Positions 263 to 28,169 of a DNA stretch of 64,000 nt are shown here, piece after piece. Positions within the stretch are counted from its first letter, which is position 1. Every line of letters starts with the position of its first letter. The DNA is from Escherichia coli (lineage in GTDB: Bacteria; Pseudomonadota; Gammaproteobacteria; Enterobacterales; Enterobacteriaceae). The notes below the pieces were generated by a model. It made no database searches and had not been told where the DNA came from. It saw only the letters and a program-made list of their open reading frames with translations. The position numbers and the translations under genes were made by a program. Where the stretch lies: the NCBI RefSeq assembly GCF_003334385.1, contig NZ_QOWN01000022.1, one strand, 5' to 3'.

Positions 263-1240
263 CTAAATCTGGTGCTTTTTCAACAACGCGCGGAACTGAT
301 GATAAGTTAACCCCAGTAATTCAGCCGCGCGCTTCTGGTTATATTTCCCTTGTTGCAAACTGAGTTGCAGCAACTCTTTTTCCTGCTGCATCTGAAACTC
401 ACGTAAATCCAGCGGCAGTGTTGGAAGCGAGGTGGTTTCTGAAACGGCGATAGCGTCTTCAGGCGGACGCCGTTTAAAGGGATCAATAATGATGTCATCA
501 AGCGGATAATCGCTGGTGCCGTGGCGATACACTGAACGTTCCACCACGTTTTTCAATTCACGAATATTTCCCGGCCAACGATAATTCAGCAATGTTTCTC
601 TGGCGCGCTCCGTAAACCCCGGGAACAGAGGCAGCTTGATTTCCCGACACATCTGGATGGCAAAGTATTCTGCCATCAACATTATGTCGCTTTCGCGCTC
701 GCGCAGTGGTGGCAGTTGTACAACATCAAAAGCCAGTCGGTCGAGCAGGTCAGCGCGAAAAGTGCCTTCATTGACCATCGCCGGGAGATCGGCATTCGTC
801 GCGCATACCAACCGCACATTCACCTGCAATGGCTGGCTGCCGCCAACGCGCTCCAGTTCACCGTACTCAATCACGCGCAATAATTTCTCCTGCACCATCA
901 TCGGTGCCGTAGCGAGTTCATCAAGAAATAGCGTACCGCCGTCGGCACGTTCAAATCTCCCTGGATGACGTTTTTGCGCACCGGTAAACGCCCCCGCTTC
1001 GTGACCAAACAGTTCGGAATCCAGCAGATTTTCATTTAACGCCGCGCAGTTAAGGGAAATAAACGGCCCTTGCCAACGGGAGGAGAGATAATGCAGGCGG
1101 CTGGCAATCAGCTCTTTACCGGTGCCGCGTTCGCCGATGATGAGCACCGGTTTGTCCAGCGGTGCGAGATGCGAAACCTGTTCCAGCACTTCGAGAAAGC
1201 TGTTCGCCTCACCAAGTAAATTATCTTTGTATTCTGCCAT
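263..1240 (-). CDS. pspF: sigma54-dependent psp operon transcriptional activator (AAA+ enhancer-binding protein)
   Basis: ORF track 263..1255; recognised PspF sequence starting MAEYKDNLLGEANSF (internal Met 5 codons into ORF); Walker A GERGTGKE; C-terminal HTH. Confidence 0.93.
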   Translation of the reverse strand: MAEYKDNLLGEANSFLEVLEQVSHLAPLDKPVLIIGERGTGKELIASRLHYLSSRWQGPFISLNCAALNENLLDSELFGHEAGAFTGAQKRHPGRFERADGGTLFLDELATAPMMVQEKLLRVIEYGELERVGGSQPLQVNVRLVCATNADLPAMVNEGTFRADLLDRLAFDVVQLPPLRERESDIMLMAEYFAIQMCREIKLPLFPGFTERARETLLNYRWPGNIRELKNVVERSVYRHGTSDYPLDDIIIDPFKRRPPEDAIAVSETTSLPTLPLDLREFQMQQEKELLQLSLQQGKYNQKRAAELLGLTYHQFRALLKKHQI

Positions 1241-1334
1241 GATGAAATTCGCCACTTGTTAGTGTAATTCGCTAACTCATCCTGGCATGTTGCTGTTGAT
1301 TCTTCAATCAGATCTTTATAAATCAAAAAGATAA

Positions 1335-2075
<741 letters not shown>

Positions 2076-2128
2076 TAACATCCAGGCGGCGTCCGAACGC
2101 GCCGCCGCTCATCGTCTAAGGAGTACTT

Positions 2129-2353
2129 ATGAGCGCGCTATTTCTGGCTATTCCGTTAACCATTTTTGTGCTGTTTGTTTTACCGATCTGGTTATGGCTG
2201 CATTACAGCAATCGTTCTGGTCGCAGTGAATTGTCGCAAAGTGAGCAGCAGCGATTAGCGCAACTGGCTGATGAAGCAAAACGGATGCGCGAACGTATTC
2301 AGGCGCTGGAATCTATTCTTGATGCAGAACATCCGAACTGGAGGGATCGCTAA
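2129..2353 (+). CDS. pspB: phage shock protein B (membrane)
   Basis: 74-aa ORF with N-terminal TM helix; operon position. Confidence 0.92.
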   Translation: MSALFLAIPLTIFVLFVLPIWLWLHYSNRSGRSELSQSEQQRLAQLADEAKRMRERIQALESILDAEHPNWRDR

Positions 2354-2712
2354 TGGCGGGCATTAATCTCAATAAAAAATTATGGCGTATTCCACAGCAG
2401 GGCATGGTCCGCGGCGTCTGCGCCGGGATTGCCAACTATTTTGATGTACCGGTAAAACTGGTGCGTATCCTGGTGGTGCTGTCGATTTTCTTCGGTCTGG
2501 CGCTGTTTACCCTGGTTGCTTACATCATTTTGTCATTTGCGCTTGATCCAATGCCGGACAACATGGCCTTTGGTGAGCAGCTACCTTCCAGCAGCGAATT
2601 GCTGGATGAAGTCGACCGTGAACTGGCGGCAAGTGAAACGCGTTTACGCGAGATGGAACGTTATGTCACTTCCGATACTTTCACGTTACGTAGCCGTTTC
2701 CGTCAACTGTGA
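2353..2712 (+). CDS. pspC: phage shock protein C
   Basis: 119-aa ORF overlapping pspB stop (ATGA coupling); TM segment. Confidence 0.92.
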
Positions 2713-2720
2713 GGAAAGTT

Positions 2721-2942
2721 ATGAATACTCGCTGGCAACAGGCCGGGCAAAAGGTAAAGCCTGGTTTCAAATTAGCAGGCAAGCTGGTACTTCTTACCGC
2801 ACTGCGCTATGGCCCGGCGGGTGTGGCGGGCTGGGCGATAAAATCAGTTGCTCGCCGACCGCTGAAAATGTTGCTGGCTGTGGCGCTGGAACCGCTGTTA
2901 AGTCGGGCTGCTAATAAACTGGCACAGCGTTATAAAAGGTGA
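2721..2942 (+). CDS. pspD: phage shock protein D
   Basis: ORF track 2709..2942; recognised PspD begins [11 protein letters not shown] at internal Met. Confidence 0.85.
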
Positions 2943-3016
2943 GGGGAGTTTCGCAAAAATTGTTAAATCTCAGGCGTATAATGGATGGCAATTTTCATCC
3001 ATAGAAGGACGCTTAC

Positions 3017-3331
3017 ATGTTTAAAAAAGGCTTACTTGCTCTGGCACTGGTGTTTTCACTGCCCGTTTTCGCCGCTGAACACTGGATCGATGTTCGTGTT
3101 CCAGAGCAGTATCAGCAAGAGCACGTTCAGGGGGCCATCAATATTCCCCTGAAGGAAGTGAAAGAGCGCATTGCCACCGCCGTTCCGGATAAAAACGACA
3201 CCGTGAAAGTGTATTGCAATGCCGGACGCCAGTCAGGGCAAGCAAAAGAGATCCTTAGCGAGATGGGATATACCCACGTTGAGAACGCCGGTGGCCTGAA
3301 AGACATCGCAATGCCGAAGGTCAAAGGTTAA
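3017..3331 (+). CDS. pspE: periplasmic rhodanese (thiosulfate sulfurtransferase)
   Basis: 104-aa ORF with signal peptide and rhodanese active-site Cys (CNAGRQS). Confidence 0.92.
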   Translation: MFKKGLLALALVFSLPVFAAEHWIDVRVPEQYQQEHVQGAINIPLKEVKERIATAVPDKNDTVKVYCNAGRQSGQAKEILSEMGYTHVENAGGLKDIAMPKVKG

Positions 3332-3344
3332 AAGAATTCACCAT

Positions 3345-3373
3345 GAGCGGCGCTTATGCGCCGTTTTTTTTTC
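3345..3373 (+). terminator. intrinsic terminator after pspE
   Basis: GC hairpin gcggcgc-ttat-gcgccg followed by T9 run. Confidence 0.8.
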
Positions 3374-3543
3374 TGTCACACCTTATTTACATCCCCATAG
3401 ATTATTTGCGTCAGCTCACAAATACGCTTTTTCCCTGGTAAAAAATGATTTCCTGCGTGACTAAAACCCTTGTGCTCAATTGACAGTTTATTTTCTGCGG
3501 AGTAGTCTCTCGTTTCATGGGACCGCTACCACGGAAAGGCAAC

Positions 3544-5223
3544 ATGAAACAGAAAATTACGGATTACCTGGACGAAATCTACGGTGGAACATTTACCGCA
3601 ACTCATTTACAGAAACTTGTAACGCGTCTTGAGAGTGCGAAACGATTAATTACACAGCGACGTAAAAAACACTGGGATGAAAGTGATGTCGTGTTAATTA
3701 CCTATGCCGATCAATTTCACAGCAATGATTTAAAACCATTACCCACATTTAATCAGTTTTACCATCAATGGCTGCAAAGCATTTTTTCACATGTTCATTT
3801 GTTGCCGTTTTATCCATGGTCATCTGATGATGGCTTTTCGGTAATTGATTATCATCAGGTCGCCAGTGAAGCGGGGGAGTGGCAGGATATTCAGCAACTC
3901 GGTGAATGCAGTCATTTAATGTTTGATTTTGTCTGCAACCATATGTCGGCAAAAAGTGAATGGTTTAAAAACTATTTACAACAGCATCCAGGTTTTGAAG
4001 ATTTTTTTATTGCCGTTGACCCGCAAACCGATCTCAGCGCCGTCACTCGCCCGCGTGCGTTACCGTTATTAACGCCATTCCAGATGCGCGATCATTCAAC
4101 GCGCCATTTATGGACCACCTTTAGTGACGATCAAATTGACCTGAATTACCGTAGCCCTGAAGTGTTGCTGGCGATGGTGGATGTTTTACTCTGTTACCTT
4201 GCGAAAGGTGCTGAGTATGTCCGCCTGGATGCCGTTGGCTTTATGTGGAAAGAGCCGGGAACAAGCTGCATCCATCTGGAAAAAACACATCTGATTATCA
4301 AACTGTTACGGTCGATTATTGATAACGTTGCGCCAGGTACAGTGATCATTACCGAGACCAATGTTCCGCATAAAGACAACATTGCTTACTTTGGCGCAGG
4401 CGATGACGAAGCACATATGGTGTACCAGTTCTCGCTGCCGCCACTGGTGCTGCATGCGGTGCAAAAACAGAACGTTGAGGCGCTTTGTGCGTGGGCGCAA
4501 AACCTGACACTACCTTCCAGCAACACCACCTGGTTTAACTTCCTCGCCTCTCACGATGGCATCGGGCTAAACCCGCTACGGGGCTTGTTGCCTGAAAGCG
4601 AAATATTAGAGCTGGTCGAGGCGTTACAGCAGGAAGGTGCATTAGTAAACTGGAAAAATAATCCCGACGGTACACGCAGTCCGTATGAAATAAATGTGAC
4701 CTATATGGATGCGTTAAGCCGCCGTGAGAGTAGCGATGAAGAACGTTGCGCCAGGTTTATCCTTGCCCATGCGATTTTGTTAAGTTTCCCCGGTGTGCCA
4801 GCGATATATATTCAAAGTATTCTTGGCTCGCGTAATGATTACGCAGGTGTCGAAAAACTCGGATATAACCGTGCGATTAACCGTAAAAAATATCACAGTA
4901 AAGAGATAACCCGAGAACTGAACGATGAAGCTACATTAAGGCATGCGGTATATCATGAGTTGTCGCGTTTAATTACACTTCGTCGCAGCCATAACGAGTT
5001 TCATCCGGATAATAATTTTACCATTGATACGATTAATTCATCCGTAATGCGTATTCAAAGAAGTAACGCTGATGGTAATTGTCTGACTGGATTGTTTAAT
5101 GTCAGTAAAAATATTCAGCATGTAAATATTACTAATCTGCATGGTCGGGATCTGATTAGTGAAGTTGATATATTGGGTAATGAAATAACGCTGCGCCCCT
5201 GGCAGGTTATGTGGATTAAATAA
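3544..5223 (+). CDS. ycjM: GH13-family sucrose-phosphorylase-like enzyme (glucosylglycerate phosphorylase)
   Basis: ORF track 3517..5223; start placed at internal ATG 3544 (MKQKITDYL) with GGAAAGG RBS; synteny. Confidence 0.88.
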   Translation: MKQKITDYLDEIYGGTFTATHLQKLVTRLESAKRLITQRRKKHWDESDVVLITYADQFHSNDLKPLPTFNQFYHQWLQSIFSHVHLLPFYPWSSDDGFSVIDYHQVASEAGEWQDIQQLGECSHLMFDFVCNHMSAKSEWFKNYLQQHPGFEDFFIAVDPQTDLSAVTRPRALPLLTPFQMRDHSTRHLWTTFSDDQIDLNYRSPEVLLAMVDVLLCYLAKGAEYVRLDAVGFMWKEPGTSCIHLEKTHLIIKLLRSIIDNVAPGTVIITETNVPHKDNIAYFGAGDDEAHMVYQFSLPPLVLHAVQKQNVEALCAWAQNLTLPSSNTTWFNFLASHDGIGLNPLRGLLPESEILELVEALQQEGALVNWKNNPDGTRSPYEINVTYMDALSRRESSDEERCARFILAHAILLSFPGVPAIYIQSILGSRNDYAGVEKLGYNRAINRKKYHSKEITRELNDEATLRHAVYHELSRLITLRRSHNEFHPDNNFTIDTINSSVMRIQRSNADGNCLTGLFNVSKNIQHVNITNLHGRDLISEVDILGNEITLRPWQVMWIK

Positions 5224-5236
5224 AAAGGAACATCTC

Positions 5237-6529
5237 ATGATTAAATCAAAAATCGTGCTGTTATCAGCACTGGTTTCATGCGCCCTGATTTCAGGCTGTA
5301 AAGAAGAAAATAAAACGAATGTATCCATCGAATTTATGCATTCTTCGGTGGAGCAGGAGCGCCAGGCCGTTATCAGTAAATTGATTGCCCGTTTTGAAAA
5401 AGAAAACCCTGGCATCACCGTTAAGCAAGTGCCCGTGGAAGAAGATGCCTATAACACTAAAGTCATTACTCTTTCACGTAGCGGTTCGCTGCCGGAAGTG
5501 ATCGAAACCAGCCATGACTACGCCAAAGTGATGGACAAAGAGCAGCTTATCGATCGCAAAGCGGTTGCCACAGTCATCAGCAACGTTGGTGAAGGCGCGT
5601 TTTACGATGGCGTACTGCGTATTGTGCGTACCGAAGATGGTAGCGCATGGACCGGTGTTCCTGTCAGCGCCTGGATTGGCGGTATCTGGTATCGCAAAGA
5701 TGTGCTGGCAAAAGCGGGGCTTGAGGAGCCGAAAAACTGGCAACAGCTGCTGGACGTTGCACAGAAACTGAATGACCCGGCGAATAAAAAATACGGCATT
5801 GCGCTGCCTACAGCAGAAAGCGTGTTGACGGAACAATCCTTCTCCCAGTTTGCGTTATCCAACCAGGCTAACGTCTTTAACGCCGAAGGCAAAATCACCC
5901 TTGATACACCAGAGATGATGCAGGCACTGACCTATTACCGCGACCTTGCTGCCAACACTATGCCGGGTTCTAACGACATCATGGAAGTGAAAGACGCCTT
6001 TATGAACGGCACCGCGCCGATGGCGATTTACTCCACCTATATCCTTCCGGCTGTGATTAAAGAAGGCGACCCGAAAAACGTCGGTTTCGTGGTGCCAACC
6101 GAGAAAAACTCTGCGGTCTACGGCATGTTGACCTCGCTGACCATTACCGCCGGGCAAAAGACCGAAGAGACGGAAGCAGCAGAAAAATTTGTCACCTTTA
6201 TGGAGCAGGCAGACAACATTGCCGACTGGGTGATGATGTCGCCAGGTGCTGCGCTGCCGGTGAATAAAGCGGTGGTGACTACCGCCACCTGGAAAGACAA
6301 CGACGTTATTAAGGCGCTGGGTGAACTACTGAATCAGCTAATCGGTGAACTGCCAAATATTCAGGTTTTTGGCGCAGTAGGGGATAAAAACTTTACCCGC
6401 ATGGGTGATGTGACGGGTTCTGGCGTGGTGAGTTCAATGGTGCATAACGTCACCGTGGGTAAAGCCGATCTCTCTACTACGCTGCAAGCGAGCCAGAAAA
6501 AACTGGATGAACTGATCGAACAGCACTAA
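5237..6529 (+). CDS. ycjN: sugar ABC transporter periplasmic binding lipoprotein
   Basis: 430-aa ORF with signal peptide and lipobox (LISGC). Confidence 0.9.
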   Translation: MIKSKIVLLSALVSCALISGCKEENKTNVSIEFMHSSVEQERQAVISKLIARFEKENPGITVKQVPVEEDAYNTKVITLSRSGSLPEVIETSHDYAKVMDKEQLIDRKAVATVISNVGEGAFYDGVLRIVRTEDGSAWTGVPVSAWIGGIWYRKDVLAKAGLEEPKNWQQLLDVAQKLNDPANKKYGIALPTAESVLTEQSFSQFALSNQANVFNAEGKITLDTPEMMQALTYYRDLAANTMPGSNDIMEVKDAFMNGTAPMAIYSTYILPAVIKEGDPKNVGFVVPTEKNSAVYGMLTSLTITAGQKTEETEAAEKFVTFMEQADNIADWVMMSPGAALPVNKAVVTTATWKDNDVIKALGELLNQLIGELPNIQVFGAVGDKNFTRMGDVTGSGVVSSMVHNVTVGKADLSTTLQASQKKLDELIEQH

Positions 6530-6549
6530 ACCCAGGACAGGAATCCGCA

Positions 6550-7431
6550 ATGAACAGGCTTTTTTCAGGTCGTTCCGATATGCCCTTTGCGCTGCTGCTT
6601 CTCGCGCCCAGCTTATTACTGCTGGGCGGTCTGGTGGCGTGGCCGATGGTGTCGAATATCGAAATCAGTTTTTTACGTCTGCCGCTCAATCCCAACATCG
6701 AGTCAACGTTTGTTGGGGTGAGCAACTATGTGCGTATCCTCTCCGATCCCGGCTTCTGGCATTCGCTGTGGATGACGGTCTGGTATACCGCGCTGGTGGT
6801 GGCGGGCAGCACCGTGCTCGGGCTGGCGGTGGCGATGTTTTTCAACCGCGAGTTCCGCCTGCGCAAAACCGCGCGTTCGCTGGTGATCCTCTCCTACGTA
6901 ACGCCGTCCATTTCGCTGGTGTTCGCCTGGAAATACATGTTCAACAACGGCTACGGCATTGTTAACTACCTCGGCGTCGATCTTCTGCATCTCTATGAGC
7001 AGGCACCGCTGTGGTTCGATAATCCGGGCAGTAGCTTTGTGCTGGTGGTGCTGTTCGCCATCTGGCGCTACTTCCCGTATGCCTTTATCTCGTTTCTGGC
7101 GATTTTGCAGACCATCGACAAATCGCTGTACGAAGCGGCAGAGATGGATGGCGCTAATGCCTGGCAACGGTTTCGTATCGTCACGCTGCCCGCAATTATG
7201 CCGGTCCTGGCGACGGTGGTGACACTGCGCACCATCTGGATGTTCTACATGTTCGCGGATGTTTATTTGCTGACGACCAAGGTCGATATTCTCGGTGTAT
7301 ATCTCTACAAAACCGCCTTTGCCTTTAATGATTTAGGAAAAGCGGCGGCGATCTCGGTGGTGCTCTTCATCATTATTTTCGCTGTCATTCTGCTGACCAG
7401 GAAACGGGTGAACCTCAATGGCAACAAATAA
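6550..7431 (+). CDS. ycjO: sugar ABC transporter permease
   Basis: 293-aa multi-TM ORF. Confidence 0.9.
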   Translation: MNRLFSGRSDMPFALLLLAPSLLLLGGLVAWPMVSNIEISFLRLPLNPNIESTFVGVSNYVRILSDPGFWHSLWMTVWYTALVVAGSTVLGLAVAMFFNREFRLRKTARSLVILSYVTPSISLVFAWKYMFNNGYGIVNYLGVDLLHLYEQAPLWFDNPGSSFVLVVLFAIWRYFPYAFISFLAILQTIDKSLYEAAEMDGANAWQRFRIVTLPAIMPVLATVVTLRTIWMFYMFADVYLLTTKVDILGVYLYKTAFAFNDLGKAAAISVVLFIIIFAVILLTRKRVNLNGNK

Positions 7432-10159: not shown

Positions 10160-11215
10160 GTGAAAAGTGCAATGACAAGCTCTCCGCTGCGGGTCGCGAT
10201 AATAGGCGCAGGCCAGGTGGCGGATAAGGTTCATGCTTCGTACTACTGCACCCGCAACGATCTGGAACTGGTGGCTGTCTGTGACAGCCGCCTTTCCCAG
10301 GCGCAGGCGCTGGCAGAAAAATACGGGAATGCATCCGTGTGGGACGATCCGCAGGCCATGCTGCTGGCGGTGAAACCTGATGTGGTTAGCGTCTGCTCAC
10401 CTAACCGTTTTCATTACGAACATACCCTGATGGCACTGGAAGCGGGCTGCCATGTGATGTGCGAAAAACCGCCCGCCATGACGCCAGAACAGGCGCGGGA
10501 AATGTGCGATACCGCGCGCAAACTGGGCAAGGTGCTGGCCTACGACTTTCACCATCGTTTTGCGCTCGATACGCAACAGCTGCGTGAACAGGTGACCAAC
10601 GGCGTTTTGGGAGAGATTTACGTTACCACCGCCCGCGCCCTGCGTCGCTGCGGCGTTCCCGGCTGGGGTGTCTTTACCAATAAAGAACTGCAGGGTGGTG
10701 GCCCGCTGATCGACATCGGCATTCATATGCTGGATGCTGCGATGTATGTGCTGGGCTTTCCGGCGGTGAAAAGCGTGAATGCGCATAGCTTTCAAAAGAT
10801 CGGCACGCAAAAGAGCTGTGGTCAATTTGGTGAGTGGGATCCGGCAACTTACAGCGTCGAAGATTCGCTGTTTGGCACCATTGAATTTCATAACGGCGGC
10901 ATTCTGTGGCTGGAAACGTCATTTGCACTCAACATCCGCGAACAGTCGATTATGAACGTCAGCTTTTGTGGTGATAAAGCTGGTGCGACGCTGTTTCCAG
11001 CACATATCTACACCGATAACAACGGTGAATTAATGACGCTGATGCAACGGGAAATGGCAGACGACAACCGCCATTTGCGCAGCATGGAAGCCTTTATCAA
11101 TCACGTACAGGGCAAGCCCGTGATGATAGCCGACGCCGAGCAGGGGTACATCATCCAGCAACTGGTGGCGGCGTTGTATCAATCCGCAGAAACAGGGACG
11201 CGTGTGGAATTATGA
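10160..11215 (+). CDS. ycjS: Gfo/Idh/MocA-family NAD-dependent oxidoreductase
   Basis: 351-aa ORF, N-terminal Rossmann motif IIGAGQVA; probable GTG start. Confidence 0.85.
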   Translation: MKSAMTSSPLRVAIIGAGQVADKVHASYYCTRNDLELVAVCDSRLSQAQALAEKYGNASVWDDPQAMLLAVKPDVVSVCSPNRFHYEHTLMALEAGCHVMCEKPPAMTPEQAREMCDTARKLGKVLAYDFHHRFALDTQQLREQVTNGVLGEIYVTTARALRRCGVPGWGVFTNKELQGGGPLIDIGIHMLDAAMYVLGFPAVKSVNAHSFQKIGTQKSCGQFGEWDPATYSVEDSLFGTIEFHNGGILWLETSFALNIREQSIMNVSFCGDKAGATLFPAHIYTDNNGELMTLMQREMADDNRHLRSMEAFINHVQGKPVMIADAEQGYIIQQLVAALYQSAETGTRVEL

Positions 11216-23224: not shown

Positions 23225-23927
23225 GATGCCAGCGCAGCAAGTTTGCCATCGCAAAGAGATATTTTTCGCTGGCTTCGTCGGAGGAGATGGGCGGAAACTC
23301 TGCGGTGATGCAATGCAAGTTCAGATCTGCACACCAACTGCCGAAAGAGCCAGGCGTTTCATAACCGACGCTGGTTACCAGAGGCAATTCAAACGCCTGA
23401 GCCAGCCATTCGCCTAATTCGCTGTGTCTGGGATCTTCAATACAGGCCAGTGGATCGTGGAATGAGACCACCCAGGCAGGTTGAATGCGGTGTATAAGCT
23501 GGCACAGCGCCTGGGTTTCAGGTTCGGAGCCAGGTTTGTCACCTGTCAGTAATACGACATCGCGTTCTTCAGCGGCGCTGTTCCAGCGATAAACGGTTTC
23601 ACCTTCCTTCCAGTTCGCCGCCGGAAAGTTTCTGTTTAAATCCACACCATTAGCATTGGCCCGTAACCCCAACTGGCAGCCGTCAGGATTCACACACAGC
23701 ACCACATGATGACGGCGCAAAGAAGGTGTCAACGTCCGCAGAGCACAGGAGAGCGTGACGACCGAAGAGTTTTCATCACCGTGAGTGCCAGCCAGAATCA
23801 AACCACTTTCGCGGCTGGCTGCAGGGGCAGGAAACCAGATTAACGGCGCGCCCAATAATGAACGTCCGTAATGTTCTGTTCCGGGCGGAAATGCGCCGCG
23901 TTCGGCGCGTGGGCGGGTTACGGTCAT
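23199..23927 (-). CDS. mpaA: murein tripeptide amidase (zinc carboxypeptidase family)
   Basis: ORF track 23199..23987; recognised start MTVTRPRAERG at internal Met. Confidence 0.88.
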
Positions 23928-24008
23928 GATCGTCTCTGGTTCAGGAAGTATTACAGGCAGTGTTGTGCAAATTTTGCGGATTATCAAATCCTTTTCTTCA
24001 ACGCTATG

Positions 24009-24191
24009 TCATCGATCTTGTATCACTTTTTTGCCGGAAGTTGTTTGCATTTTATTAGTTGGATAGGGTTTGTGGATTTTTGCTGGCTGACGGGCAAATA
24101 AAGTTTGTTTAATGGTTTGCTTATCTGCCAGTTGATTAATCACATGGCGGGCTATCTGACCGCCAGCACCAAGAATCAGTACATTTTTCAT
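24009..24191 (-). CDS. ymjC: small NAD-binding-fold fragment protein
   Basis: 60-aa ORF with Rossmann-like MKNVLILGAGGQIARHV; position between ycjY and mpaA. Confidence 0.6.
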   Translation of the reverse strand: MKNVLILGAGGQIARHVINQLADKQTIKQTLFARQPAKIHKPYPTNKMQTTSGKKVIQDR

Positions 24192-24261
24192 GAAAATTAT
24201 CCCAGATTATTGGCAGCAATATGCCAGTCCATATCACTATTGCGGATTTGAATATGTTTCA

Positions 24262-25182
24262 TTACAGAGTTTCCTCAAAGAACGGAGCTAATACTGAAAT
24301 TGCTTCAGCCACATAGGCTTTGCCGTCATAAAGATCCATATGGTTTGCGCCTTCAACAATGTGATAGCGTTTATCCTGGCTTGATGCTCGATCGTACAGG
24401 TCGTCACTCATCCATTTGCTCCCTGCCTGGCTGCCCGCCACAATCTGCGTCGGCTGAGTCAGGTACACTTCCGCCATATGGTAAGCATCATAGGTAATAA
24501 TCTGGTTAAGGCTGCGCAAAGTAGCGTAACCCGGTGCTGTTGGATACTGCGCGCGAGGGGGGTGGTAATACTCCCAGGCCTGACGCAGTTCTTCGTTCGG
24601 CGCATCGGACTCCTTCATTGGTGCCAGTGGCATAATGGCGTATTCTCCGCTGCTAATATCGCTGGTTCTGGCGTTTGAACCCGCTTCAACGTATGGCAGG
24701 GCATCAATAGATTTCACATTGTTTTCCCAACCATTACGGAATATCGAACCAATATTGACCGCACTAACGGTACCGATGGCCTTGATGCGGCGATCCTGAA
24801 TTGCAGCATTGGCTGTATATCCTGCACCGGCACAAATTCCCATCGCACCAATTCGGGTATTGTCGACATAAGAAAGCGTTGTCAGGTAATCAATCACGGC
24901 ACTGATGTCTTCAGTACGAATGTATGGGTTTTCTAACTGACGCGGCTCGCCGCCACTTTCACCTTGATAAGATGCGTCATAAGCAATAGTGACAAATCCC
25001 TTTTCCGCCAGTTTTTTGGCATAGGTTCCGGCCGTTTGTTCTTTAACGCCCCCACCTGGGTGAGATAACACAATTGCCTGATACTGACGGGTTTCATCAA
25101 ATTTTGGAGGGAAATAGATCACTGCAGACAAAGAGATGGTTGGATTATTGCTGTTAGTGAAGCTGACTTTATTATTCATCAT
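24262..25182 (-). CDS. ycjY: alpha/beta hydrolase
   Basis: ORF track 24262..25194; start may be Met 1 or Met 5 of ORF. Confidence 0.85.
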   Translation of the reverse strand: MMNNKVSFTNSNNPTISLSAVIYFPPKFDETRQYQAIVLSHPGGGVKEQTAGTYAKKLAEKGFVTIAYDASYQGESGGEPRQLENPYIRTEDISAVIDYLTTLSYVDNTRIGAMGICAGAGYTANAAIQDRRIKAIGTVSAVNIGSIFRNGWENNVKSIDALPYVEAGSNARTSDISSGEYAIMPLAPMKESDAPNEELRQAWEYYHPPRAQYPTAPGYATLRSLNQIITYDAYHMAEVYLTQPTQIVAGSQAGSKWMSDDLYDRASSQDKRYHIVEGANHMDLYDGKAYVAEAISVLAPFFEETL

Positions 25183-25249
25183 TCCGTTCCTCATGGAGTT
25201 GTCGGTTCGTTTTAACGGTTGGTGATATCACTATAGATATTGATCATTA

Positions 25250-25280
25250 AGTTGATTAGACCCAAAATCATGATTAGACC
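25250..25280. promoter_or_regulatory. direct repeats in divergent ycjY/pgrR promoter region (candidate LysR-type operator)
   Basis: tgattagacc repeated twice about 15 bp apart (25254-25278). Confidence 0.4.
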
Positions 25281-25319
25281 TATCATTTAAATGATTAATA
25301 GATTGCATGGAGATACTGA

Positions 25320-26219
25320 ATGAAGCGTGAAGAAATCGCTGATCTGATGGCGTTTGTCGTCGTTGCAGAGGAGCGTAGCTTCACTCGTGCAGCAGCCCGC
25401 CTGAGCATGGCGCAGTCAGCTTTAAGCCAGATAGTGCGTCGTATAGAAGAACGATTGGGATTGCGGCTTCTGACGCGAACCACGCGCAGCGTTGTTCCAA
25501 CTGAAGCGGGCGAGCATCTTTTGTCTGTTCTTGGCCCTATGTTGCATGACATAGATTCAGCCATGGCATCCCTGAGCGATCTGCAGAACCGCCCATCCAG
25601 GACAATACGTATTACTACTGTAGAACATGCAGCAAAAACGATATTGTTACCAGCAATGCGCACATTCCTGAAATCGCATCCTGAAATTGATATTCAGCTC
25701 ACCATTGATTATGGTTTGACCGATGTCGTTTCTGAACGTTTTGATGCAGGCGTCCGTCTGGGTGGGGAGATGGATAAAGATATGATCGCCATTCGAATCG
25801 GGCCAGATATACCAATGGCTATTGTTGGCTCACCGGATTATTTTTCTCGCCGAAGTGTTCCAACGTCAGTGTCACAATTAATAGATCATCAGGCAATTAA
25901 TTTGTATCTTCCCACATCGGGTACAGCAAATCGCTGGAGATTAATACGCGGTGGACGTGAAGTTCGTGTTCGCATGGAAGGTCAGCTTTTACTGAATACG
26001 ATAGACCTGATCATTGATGCTGCAATTGATGGGCATGGATTGGCGTATCTACCTTATGATCAGGTTGAGCGGGCTATTAAAGAAAAAAAACTGATACGTG
26101 TTTTGGATAAATTCACACCAGATTTACCCGGTTATCACCTGTACTATCCACACCGTCGACATGCTGGCTCGGCATTCTCATTATTTATAGATAGGCTGAA
26201 GTATAAAGGTGCTGTTTAG
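25320..26219 (+). CDS. pgrR: LysR-family regulator of peptidoglycan recycling
   Basis: 299-aa ORF, N-terminal LysR HTH; divergent from ycjY. Confidence 0.9.
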   Translation: MKREEIADLMAFVVVAEERSFTRAAARLSMAQSALSQIVRRIEERLGLRLLTRTTRSVVPTEAGEHLLSVLGPMLHDIDSAMASLSDLQNRPSRTIRITTVEHAAKTILLPAMRTFLKSHPEIDIQLTIDYGLTDVVSERFDAGVRLGGEMDKDMIAIRIGPDIPMAIVGSPDYFSRRSVPTSVSQLIDHQAINLYLPTSGTANRWRLIRGGREVRVRMEGQLLLNTIDLIIDAAIDGHGLAYLPYDQVERAIKEKKLIRVLDKFTPDLPGYHLYYPHRRHAGSAFSLFIDRLKYKGAV

Positions 26220-26555
26220 CACTACTTGCTGATACATTAATTTAATTCTTCTCTTAACGTATTCTCAGTTCCTTTCAACGTTTTGGTCATTTTTTATTCT
26301 TCGTACAATGGCGACAGATGCTGATTATGATACCGAAAACGGGTTTGAACGTGCGAAGCCCGAACGTAGTGTTCGGAGTTCTATGTGCTTTACCGCATTT
26401 TGGAGACTATTATTTACACTAAATCTGATTTGATATATTGATACTTAAAACATTTGATGCTTCCTTTGTCACTTTTTTGATGGAAGTTGTTTGCATTTCT
26501 TTAAGGCGAAACAAATAATTACGCATCAATTTTAATGTCGGTTAGAGGGAAACTT

Positions 26556-28169
26556 ATGAAGCACTCTGTTTCAGTCACGTGTTGTGCGCTGTTGGTCAGC
26601 AGCATTTCTCTTTCGTATGCTGCAGAAGTTCCGAGCGGCACAGTACTGGCAGAGAAGCAGGAGCTGGTGCGCCACATTAAAGATGAGCCTGCGTCGCTGG
26701 ATCCCGCTAAAGCCGTGGGCCTGCCAGAGATTCAGGTCATTCGCGATCTGTTTGAAGGTCTGGTGAATCAGAACGAAAAAGGGGAGATTGTCCCCGGCGT
26801 TGCGACTCAGTGGAAAAGTAATGACAACCGTATCTGGACTTTTACCCTGCGCGATAACGCAAAATGGGCGGATGGCACACCGGTAACGGCGCAAGATTTT
26901 GTCTACAGCTGGCAACGTCTGGTGGACCCAAAAACATTGTCGCCATTTGCATGGTTTGCCGCGCTGGCGGGAATCAACAACGCACAGGCGATTATTGATG
27001 GTAAAGCTACGCCTGACCAGCTTGGCGTCACCGCAGTTGATGCCCATACTTTGAAAATTCAGCTTGATAAACCGTTGCCGTGGTTTGTGAATTTAACCGC
27101 TAACTTTGCCTTCTTCCCGGTGCAAAAAGCCAACGTAGAAAGCGGTAAAGAGTGGACGAAACCCGGAAATCTGATCGGCAATGGCGCTTATGTTCTTAAA
27201 GAGCGCGTAGTCAATGAAAAACTGGTCGTGGTACCGAATACCCATTATTGGGATAACGCCAAAACGGTACTGCAAAAAGTGACCTTCCTGCCAATTAATC
27301 AGGAATCCGCAGCCACTAAGCGTTACCTCGCGGGGGATATTGATATCACCGAATCCTTCCCGAAAAATATGTATCAGAAGCTGTTGAAGGATATTCCGGG
27401 GCAGGTTTATACGCCGCCGCAGCTCGGGACCTATTATTATGCGTTTAACACGCAAAAAGGGCCGACGGCAGATCAGCGCGTTCGTCTGGCATTAAGTATG
27501 ACGATAGATCGCCGCCTGATGACCGAAAAAGTATTAGGGACGGGCGAAAAGCCAGCGTGGCATTTTACACCAGATGTTACCGCGGGATTTACGCCGGAAC
27601 CTTCGCCGTTTGAACAAATGAGTCAGGAAGAACTGAATGCGCAGGCAAAAACTTTGTTGAGCGCAGCTGGTTATGGTCCGCAAAAACCGCTGAAGCTGAC
27701 GCTTTTGTATAACACTTCAGAAAACCATCAAAAAATTGCGATTGCTGTAGCATCGATGTGGAAAAAGAACCTTGGCGTAGATGTTAAATTGCAAAATCAG
27801 GAATGGAAAACCTATATCGATAGCCGTAACACCGGCAATTTTGATGTTATCCGCGCCTCGTGGGTGGGGGATTATAATGAACCCTCCACTTTCCTGACAT
27901 TATTAACGTCAACGCATTCAGGAAATATTTCACGCTTTAACAATCCGGCATATGACAAAGTTCTGGCCCAGGCATCGACGGAAAATACCGTTAAAGCGCG
28001 TAATGCCGATTACAACGCGGCAGAAAAAATCCTCATGGAGCAAGCACCGATTGCACCAATTTATCAATATACCAATGGACGATTAATCAAGCCGTGGCTG
28101 AAAGGTTATCCCATTAATAATCCTGAAGATGTGGCGTACAGTCGGACTATGTATATTGTGAAGCATTGA
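26556..28169 (+). CDS. mppA: periplasmic murein tripeptide-binding protein (OppA paralogue)
   Basis: ORF track 26535..28169; start MKHSVSVTCCALL with signal peptide. Confidence 0.92.
   Translation: MKHSVSVTCCALLVSSISLSYAAEVPSGTVLAEKQELVRHIKDEPASLDPAKAVGLPEIQVIRDLFEGLVNQNEKGEIVPGVATQWKSNDNRIWTFTLRDNAKWADGTPVTAQDFVYSWQRLVDPKTLSPFAWFAALAGINNAQAIIDGKATPDQLGVTAVDAHTLKIQLDKPLPWFVNLTANFAFFPVQKANVESGKEWTKPGNLIGNGAYVLKERVVNEKLVVVPNTHYWDNAKTVLQKVTFLPINQESAATKRYLAGDIDITESFPKNMYQKLLKDIPGQVYTPPQLGTYYYAFNTQKGPTADQRVRLALSMTIDRRLMTEKVLGTGEKPAWHFTPDVTAGFTPEPSPFEQMSQEELNAQAKTLLSAAGYGPQKPLKLTLLYNTSENHQKIAIAVASMWKKNLGVDVKLQNQEWKTYIDSRNTGNFDVIRASWVGDYNEPSTFLTLLTSTHSGNISRFNNPAYDKVLAQASTENTVKARNADYNAAEKILMEQAPIAPIYQYTNGRLIKPWLKGYPINNPEDVAYSRTMYIVKH

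Follow-up and report, generated by a model that had tools for sequence, protein, structure and literature searches.

A duplicated segment of divergent promoter DNA at the probable junctions of the pgrR islet between mpaA and mppA of Escherichia coli

The DNA considered here (the window) is a stretch of 64,000 nucleotides (nt) of Escherichia coli, contig NZ_QOWN01000022.1, which carries the K-12 (MG1655-matching) region tyrR-tpx-ycjG-mpaA-ymjC-ymjD-ycjY-pgrR-mppA. Two near-identical 31-nt sequences lie within this region in direct orientation, one beside mpaA and one beside mppA. Copy 1 forms the last codons of the ymjC open reading frame (ORF), 96–126 nt upstream of the mpaA ATG (23927), and copy 2 ends 56 nt upstream of the mppA ATG (26556); the two copies are identical at 28 of 31 positions. 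The pair was noticed in an original prediction made from the window alone. The coordinates and the 28/31 identity given there are exact, and its description of the gene context is correct, since the gene order of the window agrees with that of MG1655. The features of the locus, and the structural states in which it occurs among E. coli genomes, are collected in Table 1.

Table 1. Features of the mpaA–mppA region and structural states of the locus (positions are those of the window)
Feature	Position	Strand	Remarks
mpaA	23199..23927	-	native gene left of the insertion
mpaA transcription start	24010	-	experimentally mapped (PMC3415461); coordinate conversion verified against the listed 51-nt sequence
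mpaA -10, TACAAG	24017-24022	-	positions -12..-7; inside the possible 7-nt extension
mpaA extended -10, TGATACAAG	TG at 24024-24025	-	TG at -15/-14
Possible leftward 7-nt extension of the duplication	24016-24022		TCTTGTA, versus TCCTTTG at 26462-26468
Certain duplicated segment in copy 1	24023-24052		TCAC...GCATTT
Repeat copy 1	24023-24053	+ (reading), same strand as copy 2	TCACTTTTTTGCCGGAAGTTGTTTGCATTTT; left islet junction
Orphan mppA -35, TTGCAT	24045..24050	+	inside copy 1; no -10 after it in K-12
ymjC	24009..24191	-	N-terminal remnant of a 212-aa NmrA-like short-chain dehydrogenase/reductase (SDR); frame enters copy 1
Inserted islet, K-12 form	24054..26468		ymjC remnant, ymjD remnant, ycjY, pgrR, ~250 bp with a queH scrap
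ymjD	24197..24262	-	21-codon ORF where the second alpha/beta-hydrolase gene is missing
ycjY (alpha/beta hydrolase)	24262..25182	-	islet cargo
pgrR (LysR-type regulator)	25320..26219	+	islet cargo
Repeat copy 2	26469-26499	+ (reading)	TCACTTTTTTGATGGAAGTTGTTTGCATTTC; right islet junction
Predicted mppA sigma-70 promoter	26491..26519	+	-35 TTGCAT 26491-26496, 17-bp spacer, -10 AATAAT 26514-26519
mppA	26556..28169	+	native gene right of the insertion
State: K-12 type	as in the window		17/40 sample rows
State: full-length SDR type			+665 bp versus K-12, 212-aa SDR complete; strain 300033 (L002); 11/40 sample rows
State: O157 type			~+1.54 kb versus K-12, full-length SDR and a second, frameshifted alpha/beta-hydrolase gene; O157:H7 86-24 (L003); 10/40 sample rows
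State: empty site			mpaA directly adjoins mppA; strain 201609 (L001); 166-173/5,419 genomes (~3%)

A repeat finder stretches the pair to 42 nt at 83% identity (24016–24057 and 26462–26503), and no wider homology was found around the copies in an alignment with 150-nt flanks on each side. The 7 nt to the left of the certain segment agree at four to five of seven positions (their counterpart beside copy 2 reads TCCTGTG in O157 and CCCTGTG in Escherichia sp. E1V33), and thus the duplication covers ~30, possibly up to 38 bp. A genome-wide search for the motif, which the original prediction had suggested, led back to the mpaA and mppA loci only: the 38-nt version, searched in 5,419 complete E. coli genomes, occurs at a median of two places per genome and at 10,656 places in total. 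Without a third copy, the motif is neither a dispersed repeat, such as a repetitive extragenic palindrome (REP), a bacterial interspersed mosaic element (BIME) or a miniature inverted-repeat transposable element (MITE), nor a regulon-wide motif. An Rfam scan of 23800–26700 returned no family, just two sub-threshold chance matches.

At positions 26479–26481, copy 2 reads GAT, where copy 1 and the compared outgroups have GCC. Both copies also vary in O157:H7, in which copy 1 (L003 1174–1204) has TTGTAT for TTGCAT, a change that alters the orphan −35 element, and copy 2 (L003 5166–5195) lacks 1 nt and has one T of its T-run replaced by C.

The arrangement of the two genes outside of E. coli was examined in mpaA loci from 80 species-representative genomes, with MppA located by tblastn. 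Both mpaA and mppA are held by 78 of them, and in 75 of these 78 non-E. coli loci the two genes are directly divergent, with spacers mostly of 182–190 bp. The 75 uninterrupted loci include those of E. albertii, E. whittamii, three cryptic Escherichia lineages, Citrobacter, Enterobacter, Leclercia, Kluyvera, Kosakonia and Klebsiella. The whole 31-mer is present in a single copy, at the same position in the spacer and with ≤6 mismatches, in all Escherichia, in most Citrobacter and in some other genera; in the remaining genera just conserved sub-blocks of it are recognisable. The only sampled non-E. coli genome with an E. coli-type islet is that of E1V33, in which the two copies are 29/31 identical. 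The E1V33 copy 2 retains GCC, and thus the GAT of the E. coli copy 2 is derived.

One copy stands at each islet junction in K-12, strain 300033, O157 and E1V33, and the flanks of the two copies have no other sequence in common. Moreover, each junction aligns collinearly with half of the single-copy spacer, and the alignment breaks off abruptly at TCAC for the left junction and at GCATTT for the right. The single copy is thus the ancestral condition in Enterobacteriaceae and the islet an insertion, and we infer that ~30 bp of the target were duplicated when it entered.

The same two conditions are found within E. coli. When 23850–26650 was queried against all complete E. coli genomes, four structural states were distinguished (Table 1), the shares of the islet-bearing states being taken from 40 evenly spaced sample rows. 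The spacer of the empty site in strain 201609 is 182 bp long and holds one copy, TCACTTTTTTGCCGGAAGTTGTTTGCATTTC. From such single-copy empty sites it follows that the two 31-mers are the two junctions of an insertion/deletion polymorphism of 2.4–4 kb. The original prediction had treated homology extending well beyond the motif as the mark of a duplication, and none was found in the 150-nt flanks; however, this lack of flank homology does not rescue a purely regulatory reading, because the comparison across genomes shows the repeats to be insertion/deletion junctions.

The single-copy E. coli genomes do not form a single clone and differ in the sequence of their one copy. The haplotype GCC...TTTC is found in ~132 genomes, which are largely of a sequence type (ST) 648-like kind and have K-12-like flanks. 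A second haplotype, in which GAT, the copy-2 state, is joined to the mpaA-side flank, is found in 14 genomes from pigs, pigeons, a frog and humans, and comprises two sub-haplotypes. The other single-copy E. coli carry divergent alleles, some of which resemble the cryptic clade L005 on the mppA side. The GCC and GAT junctions are the expected products of crossovers to the right and to the left, respectively, of repeat positions 12–13, and the GAT strains and the islet-bearing O157 strain 86-24 carry the identical MpaA protein (WP_000219122.1). These natural variants indicate that the islet was cleanly excised by recombination between the repeats at least twice. In several strains, insertion sequence (IS) elements (ISVsa5, IS1 and IS5) are present inside the islet, and six of the matches to the region come from records that are labelled as plasmids.

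The content of the islet also points to an origin outside of the E. coli lineage. PgrR homologues that are 87–88% identical occur in Klebsiella, Raoultella, Enterobacter, Citrobacter, Kluyvera and Salmonella. In Raoultella ornithinolytica and Klebsiella aerogenes, the pgrR homologue is part of a 5.84-kb module of six genes, which encode an Old Yellow Enzyme (OYE) reductase, a short-chain dehydrogenase (adh_short), an NmrA-like SDR, two alpha/beta hydrolases and, divergently, a LysR-type protein. The borders of this module are identical in four unrelated contexts (L091, L094, L095 and L096; ~1133–6983), including a conjugative element and a site beside an ars operon. The O157-form islet (L003 1298–4915) corresponds to the inner 3.6 kb of the module at 79% DNA identity; the module ends are not shared, and the outermost ~93 bp of the islet on the left and ~250 bp on the right have no counterpart in the module. 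The hydrolase gene that is missing at ymjD is present in O157 in frameshifted form (L003 2028–2958, a 310-aa-class alpha/beta hydrolase), and both hydrolase genes are intact in the homologous Klebsiella/Raoultella module. Based on these comparisons, the islet is foreign, horizontally acquired DNA. The 31-mer was not found near the module in the Klebsiella/Raoultella contexts at ≤9 mismatches (L091–L096), and because the motif is absent from these other contexts of the module, the repeat is native spacer DNA and not mobile cargo.

Two further observations concern the origin of this DNA. RefSeq annotates a 75-bp internal fragment of the gene for the epoxyqueuosine reductase QueH downstream of pgrR (L003 5013–5087; window ~26300–26375). 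The fragment is also present in K-12; it lies within the part of the islet that is not common to the module and is a clue to the donor genome. In L095, nested inverted repeats enclose the module; one of them is GTGTATTAGCTCAGA at 1081, with its complement at ~7043.

The duplicated DNA contains promoter elements of both flanking genes. A transcription start of mpaA has been mapped at position 1388705 of NC_000913.2, on the minus strand, with 20 reads (Kim et al. 2012, PMC3415461, Table S1), and window positions 24010–24060, when reverse-complemented, give the published −50..+1 sequence, AACTAATAAAATGCAAACAACTTCCGGCAAAAAAGTGATACAAGATCGATG. Copy 1 therefore corresponds to −13 to −43 of the mapped mpaA promoter, in which there is no recognisable −35 element. 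Similarly, copy 2 corresponds to −30 to −60 of the predicted mppA promoter, with the −35 element included. In all 75 uninterrupted spacers, the mppA −35 element is TTGCAT, TTGCAA or TTGCTT, the distance to the −10 element is exactly 17 bp and AATAAT is invariant; in the conservation profile, few parts of the spacer are kept better than the two ends of the motif (ATCA... and TTTGCATTT) and the −10 block. In the ancestral spacer, ~70 bp separate the mapped start of mpaA from the predicted one of mppA, and the two −35 regions abut inside the 31-mer. Copy 2 also holds the mpaA promoter core, with a −10 element that is degraded or absent (CAAAGG or CACAGG).

As judged from these elements, the duplicated DNA would be the overlapping core of two divergent promoters, of which the mppA half is a comparative prediction. 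Because of the repeat, mpaA retains its own mapped promoter inside the ymjC reading frame. The idea of a shared regulatory site, as put forward in the original prediction, holds insofar as the segment is promoter DNA for both genes (the mppA promoter being predicted), but PgrR as the protein that binds it is unsupported.

The ymjC fragment has a different history from that of the repeat. Compared with the strains in which the SDR gene is of full length, K-12 has a 665-bp deletion with ATT microhomology (window 24053–24056; L002 1205–1868), which extends from 1–4 nt past copy 1 to codon ~47 of the SDR gene and which is also carried by E1V33. It was this deletion, and not the duplication of the repeat, that gave rise to ymjC, and it is because of the deletion that the ymjC frame reads through copy 1. 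The suggestion that the motif was left behind by a local duplication from which the ymjC fragment arose was thus half right: there is a duplication, of ~30–38 bp of ancestral spacer at the islet junctions, but ymjC stems from a separate 665-bp deletion that ends 1–4 nt beside copy 1.

The 665-bp deletion also removed a terminator-like hairpin with an 11-bp stem that lies 3′ of the intact SDR gene (L002 1349–1325) and is kept in about half of the sampled E. coli. Removal of this terminator probably made the reported co-transcription of ycjY-ymjD-ymjC-mpaA possible, and control of mpaA by PgrR through read-through from ycjY may be specific to strains with the deletion. A published study of ymjC and trimethoprim, which we checked for a link to PhoP, reports only a twofold change in the minimal inhibitory concentration (MIC) of trimethoprim and was uninformative.

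Taken together, we consider it highly probable that the 31-mers are the left and right junctions of an islet that was inserted into the mpaA–mppA spacer and that duplicated the promoter core. In the E. coli lineage, a foreign block comprising an NmrA-like SDR gene, one or two alpha/beta-hydrolase genes including ycjY, pgrR and ~340 bp of other DNA would have entered the ~182-bp spacer. The duplication of the target, of ~30 and possibly as much as 38 bp, would presumably date from the insertion itself and have placed one copy at each end of the islet. Each gene would thereby have kept all of its promoter on the side of the islet that faces it, that of mppA being expected to fire, and in each copy the half-promoter of the opposite strand would have been stranded without its partner element. 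The repeats would then serve as substrates for recombination, with crossing-over between them removing the islet cleanly and leaving a single hybrid copy. The duplication itself could have come about by a staggered break with fill-in, by Campbell-type entry of a circle that carried the segment, or through an integrase that was later lost.

A number of points weigh against this reconstruction. No integrase, transposase or other recombinase is present in or beside the islet, which leaves the origin of a 30–38 bp duplication unexplained, and this length far exceeds that of ordinary transposon target duplications. The leftward 7-nt extension, with its four to five matches, may be due to chance. 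With respect to the promoters, Table S1 of Kim et al. (PMC3415461) contains no proximal mppA start, and two coordinate look-ups in Cappable-seq supplements gave no mppA start from data that are possibly incomplete. A weak start (6 reads) at window position 26067 on the plus strand, in the 3′ part of pgrR, was assigned to mppA with a leader of 489 nt (Kim et al. 2012, PMC3415461). The mpaA extended −10 element is well kept in Escherichia and Citrobacter and is not obviously conserved in more distant genera. Finally, the ST648-type single copy is identical to that of the cryptic clade L005 and could be an ancestral allele that was retained or re-imported; of the single-copy types, only GAT argues firmly for excision.

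If the similarity of the copies were due to chance or to convergence of two promoter regions, it would owe much to the fact that both sites are AT-rich, intergenic-type sequence. We regard this possibility as refuted: none of 100 dinucleotide-preserving shuffles of the window yields a match at ≤3 mismatches, the E1V33 copies agree at 29 of 31 positions, and each copy is collinear with half of the outgroup single-copy spacer. Nearly as improbable is that the 31-mer is a PgrR operator which is doubled because PgrR co-regulates mpaA and mppA. The pgrR gene does lie between the two copies, and the PgrR regulon is listed as ycjG, ycjXF-tyrR and ycjY-ymjDC-mpaA (PMC5934670), so that mpaA is under reported PgrR control. 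With LysR operators in divergent spacers between regulator and target, this locus has in common a nearby LysR gene and the reported effect on mpaA expression. However, the targets of PgrR found by genomic systematic evolution of ligands by exponential enrichment (SELEX), as given in a secondary list, are the ycjY/ycjZ spacer and ten other loci, and include neither the region upstream of mppA nor ymjC/mpaA (PMC5934670). The reported PgrR site is thus in the ycjY/pgrR spacer (window ~25183–25319) and not in the 31-mers. In addition, the motif is kept at the same position in genera that have no pgrR at the locus, and predates pgrR there; the two copies share one absolute orientation and therefore face opposite ways relative to mpaA and mppA; they occupy different promoter positions (−13/−43 versus −30/−60); and no further copies of the motif occur at other PgrR targets. 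The link to PgrR drawn in the original prediction fails on the published SELEX list, on the loci without pgrR, on the opposed gene-relative orientation and on the missing third copy.

Another reading is that the repeats resemble the attachment sites attL and attR and that the islet is an integrase-less mobilisable element, which uses a 30-bp site with a recombinase supplied in trans. The length of the repeat is within the range of att cores, both of its edges are sharp, clean single-copy empty sites exist, the parent module is carried on conjugative elements and the K-12 665-bp deletion ends 1–4 nt from the repeat edge. Nevertheless, we judge this unlikely. The annotated genes of all islet forms are confined to the SDR, the hydrolases, pgrR and the queH scrap, and no recombinase gene accompanies them within the islet or beside it; where the module occurs in other contexts, its flanks lack the motif, and the E. 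coli islet holds just the inner part of the module and not its ends. The two single-copy junction types imply crossovers at different points of the repeat, which resembles homologous recombination and not fixed cleavage, and there is only one such locus per genome.

A more speculative extension of the insertion model, to which we give a small but somewhat better chance, is that the pgrR islet is a reversible insert, which is excised as a circle with one copy and can re-enter the empty mpaA–mppA spacer of another strain, and thereby switches the coupling of the promoters. The promoters would be coupled in the empty site, where they overlap and their starts are ~70 bp apart, and uncoupled in the occupied one, where each has its own copy; in K-12-type strains, the uncoupled mpaA would additionally be fed by PgrR-controlled read-through. 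Such a transfer would be exemplified by E1V33, in which an E. coli-type islet and mpaA side are combined with an mppA side of native type.

It is also possible, at perhaps the odds of a minority view, that the segment binds some widely conserved regulator of mpaA and mppA, and that the duplication gave each gene its own operator; such binding is compatible with an insertion that duplicated the promoter core. The left block of the motif, (T)ATCA(A/C)TTTT, which falls at about −47 to −57 in the predicted mppA promoter, is kept from genus to genus and is not an mppA core hexamer, the mpaA promoter is without a recognisable −35 element, as is common for activator-dependent or extended −10 promoters, and mpaA and mppA serve one pathway. 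On the other hand, no transcription factor is assigned to the segment in the literature examined, the central 10 nt of the motif are variable outside of Escherichia and Citrobacter, and the conservation of the left block could stem from an UP element or from the mpaA −10 region. By-eye matches of the motif to the CRP, FNR and PhoP consensus sequences were all partial and unconvincing.

Among known systems, the locus is of the kind of an islet flanked by duplicated target; its notable feature is a target that consists of the core shared by two divergent promoters. Like islets with flanking direct repeats of the attL/attR type or with long target duplications, it has copies in the same orientation at the junctions of acquired DNA, a single copy at the empty site, and loss by recombination between the copies. 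It differs from them in that there is no integrase or transposase and in having a divergent promoter core, not a tRNA gene, as its target, and it differs from the target duplications of IS elements and transposons in its much greater length of 30–38 bp. The ancestral mpaA/mppA spacer, arranged back to back, is like the compact, divergent and overlapping sigma-70 promoter pairs of enterobacteria, but the E. coli pair has been split by the insertion, with the shared core duplicated and both promoters complete.

Thus pgrR, which is named as a regulator of peptidoglycan recycling, ycjY and ymjC are acquired cargo that split the native divergent promoter of mpaA and mppA. In many E. coli, this cargo is absent or has decayed in another way. 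Neither 31-mer should be annotated as a PgrR site. The finding overturns no principle; it provides a worked example of a promoter-preserving insertion at a textbook K-12 locus.

The mpaA–mppA spacer is also occupied by a different islet, of ~3 kb, in Salmonella enterica subsp. arizonae and diarizonae (L025 3848–7000 and L027 3561–7000). This islet encodes three putative proteins that, by eye from their translations, resemble the cytolethal distending toxin components CdtA, CdtB and CdtC. We looked for a repeat flanking this Salmonella islet and found none, and both the motif and the mppA −10 block are unrecognisable at the locus.

An even stronger conservation than that of the repeat itself is seen in the mpaA 5′ untranslated region (window 23955–23990, minus strand), where two blocks, GGCAGTGTTGTGCAAA and ATTATCAAAT, are 90–96% conserved across 75 species. 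These blocks could represent a site for a protein, an RNA element of the mpaA leader or a second promoter, with TTGATA-17-AACACT on the minus strand.

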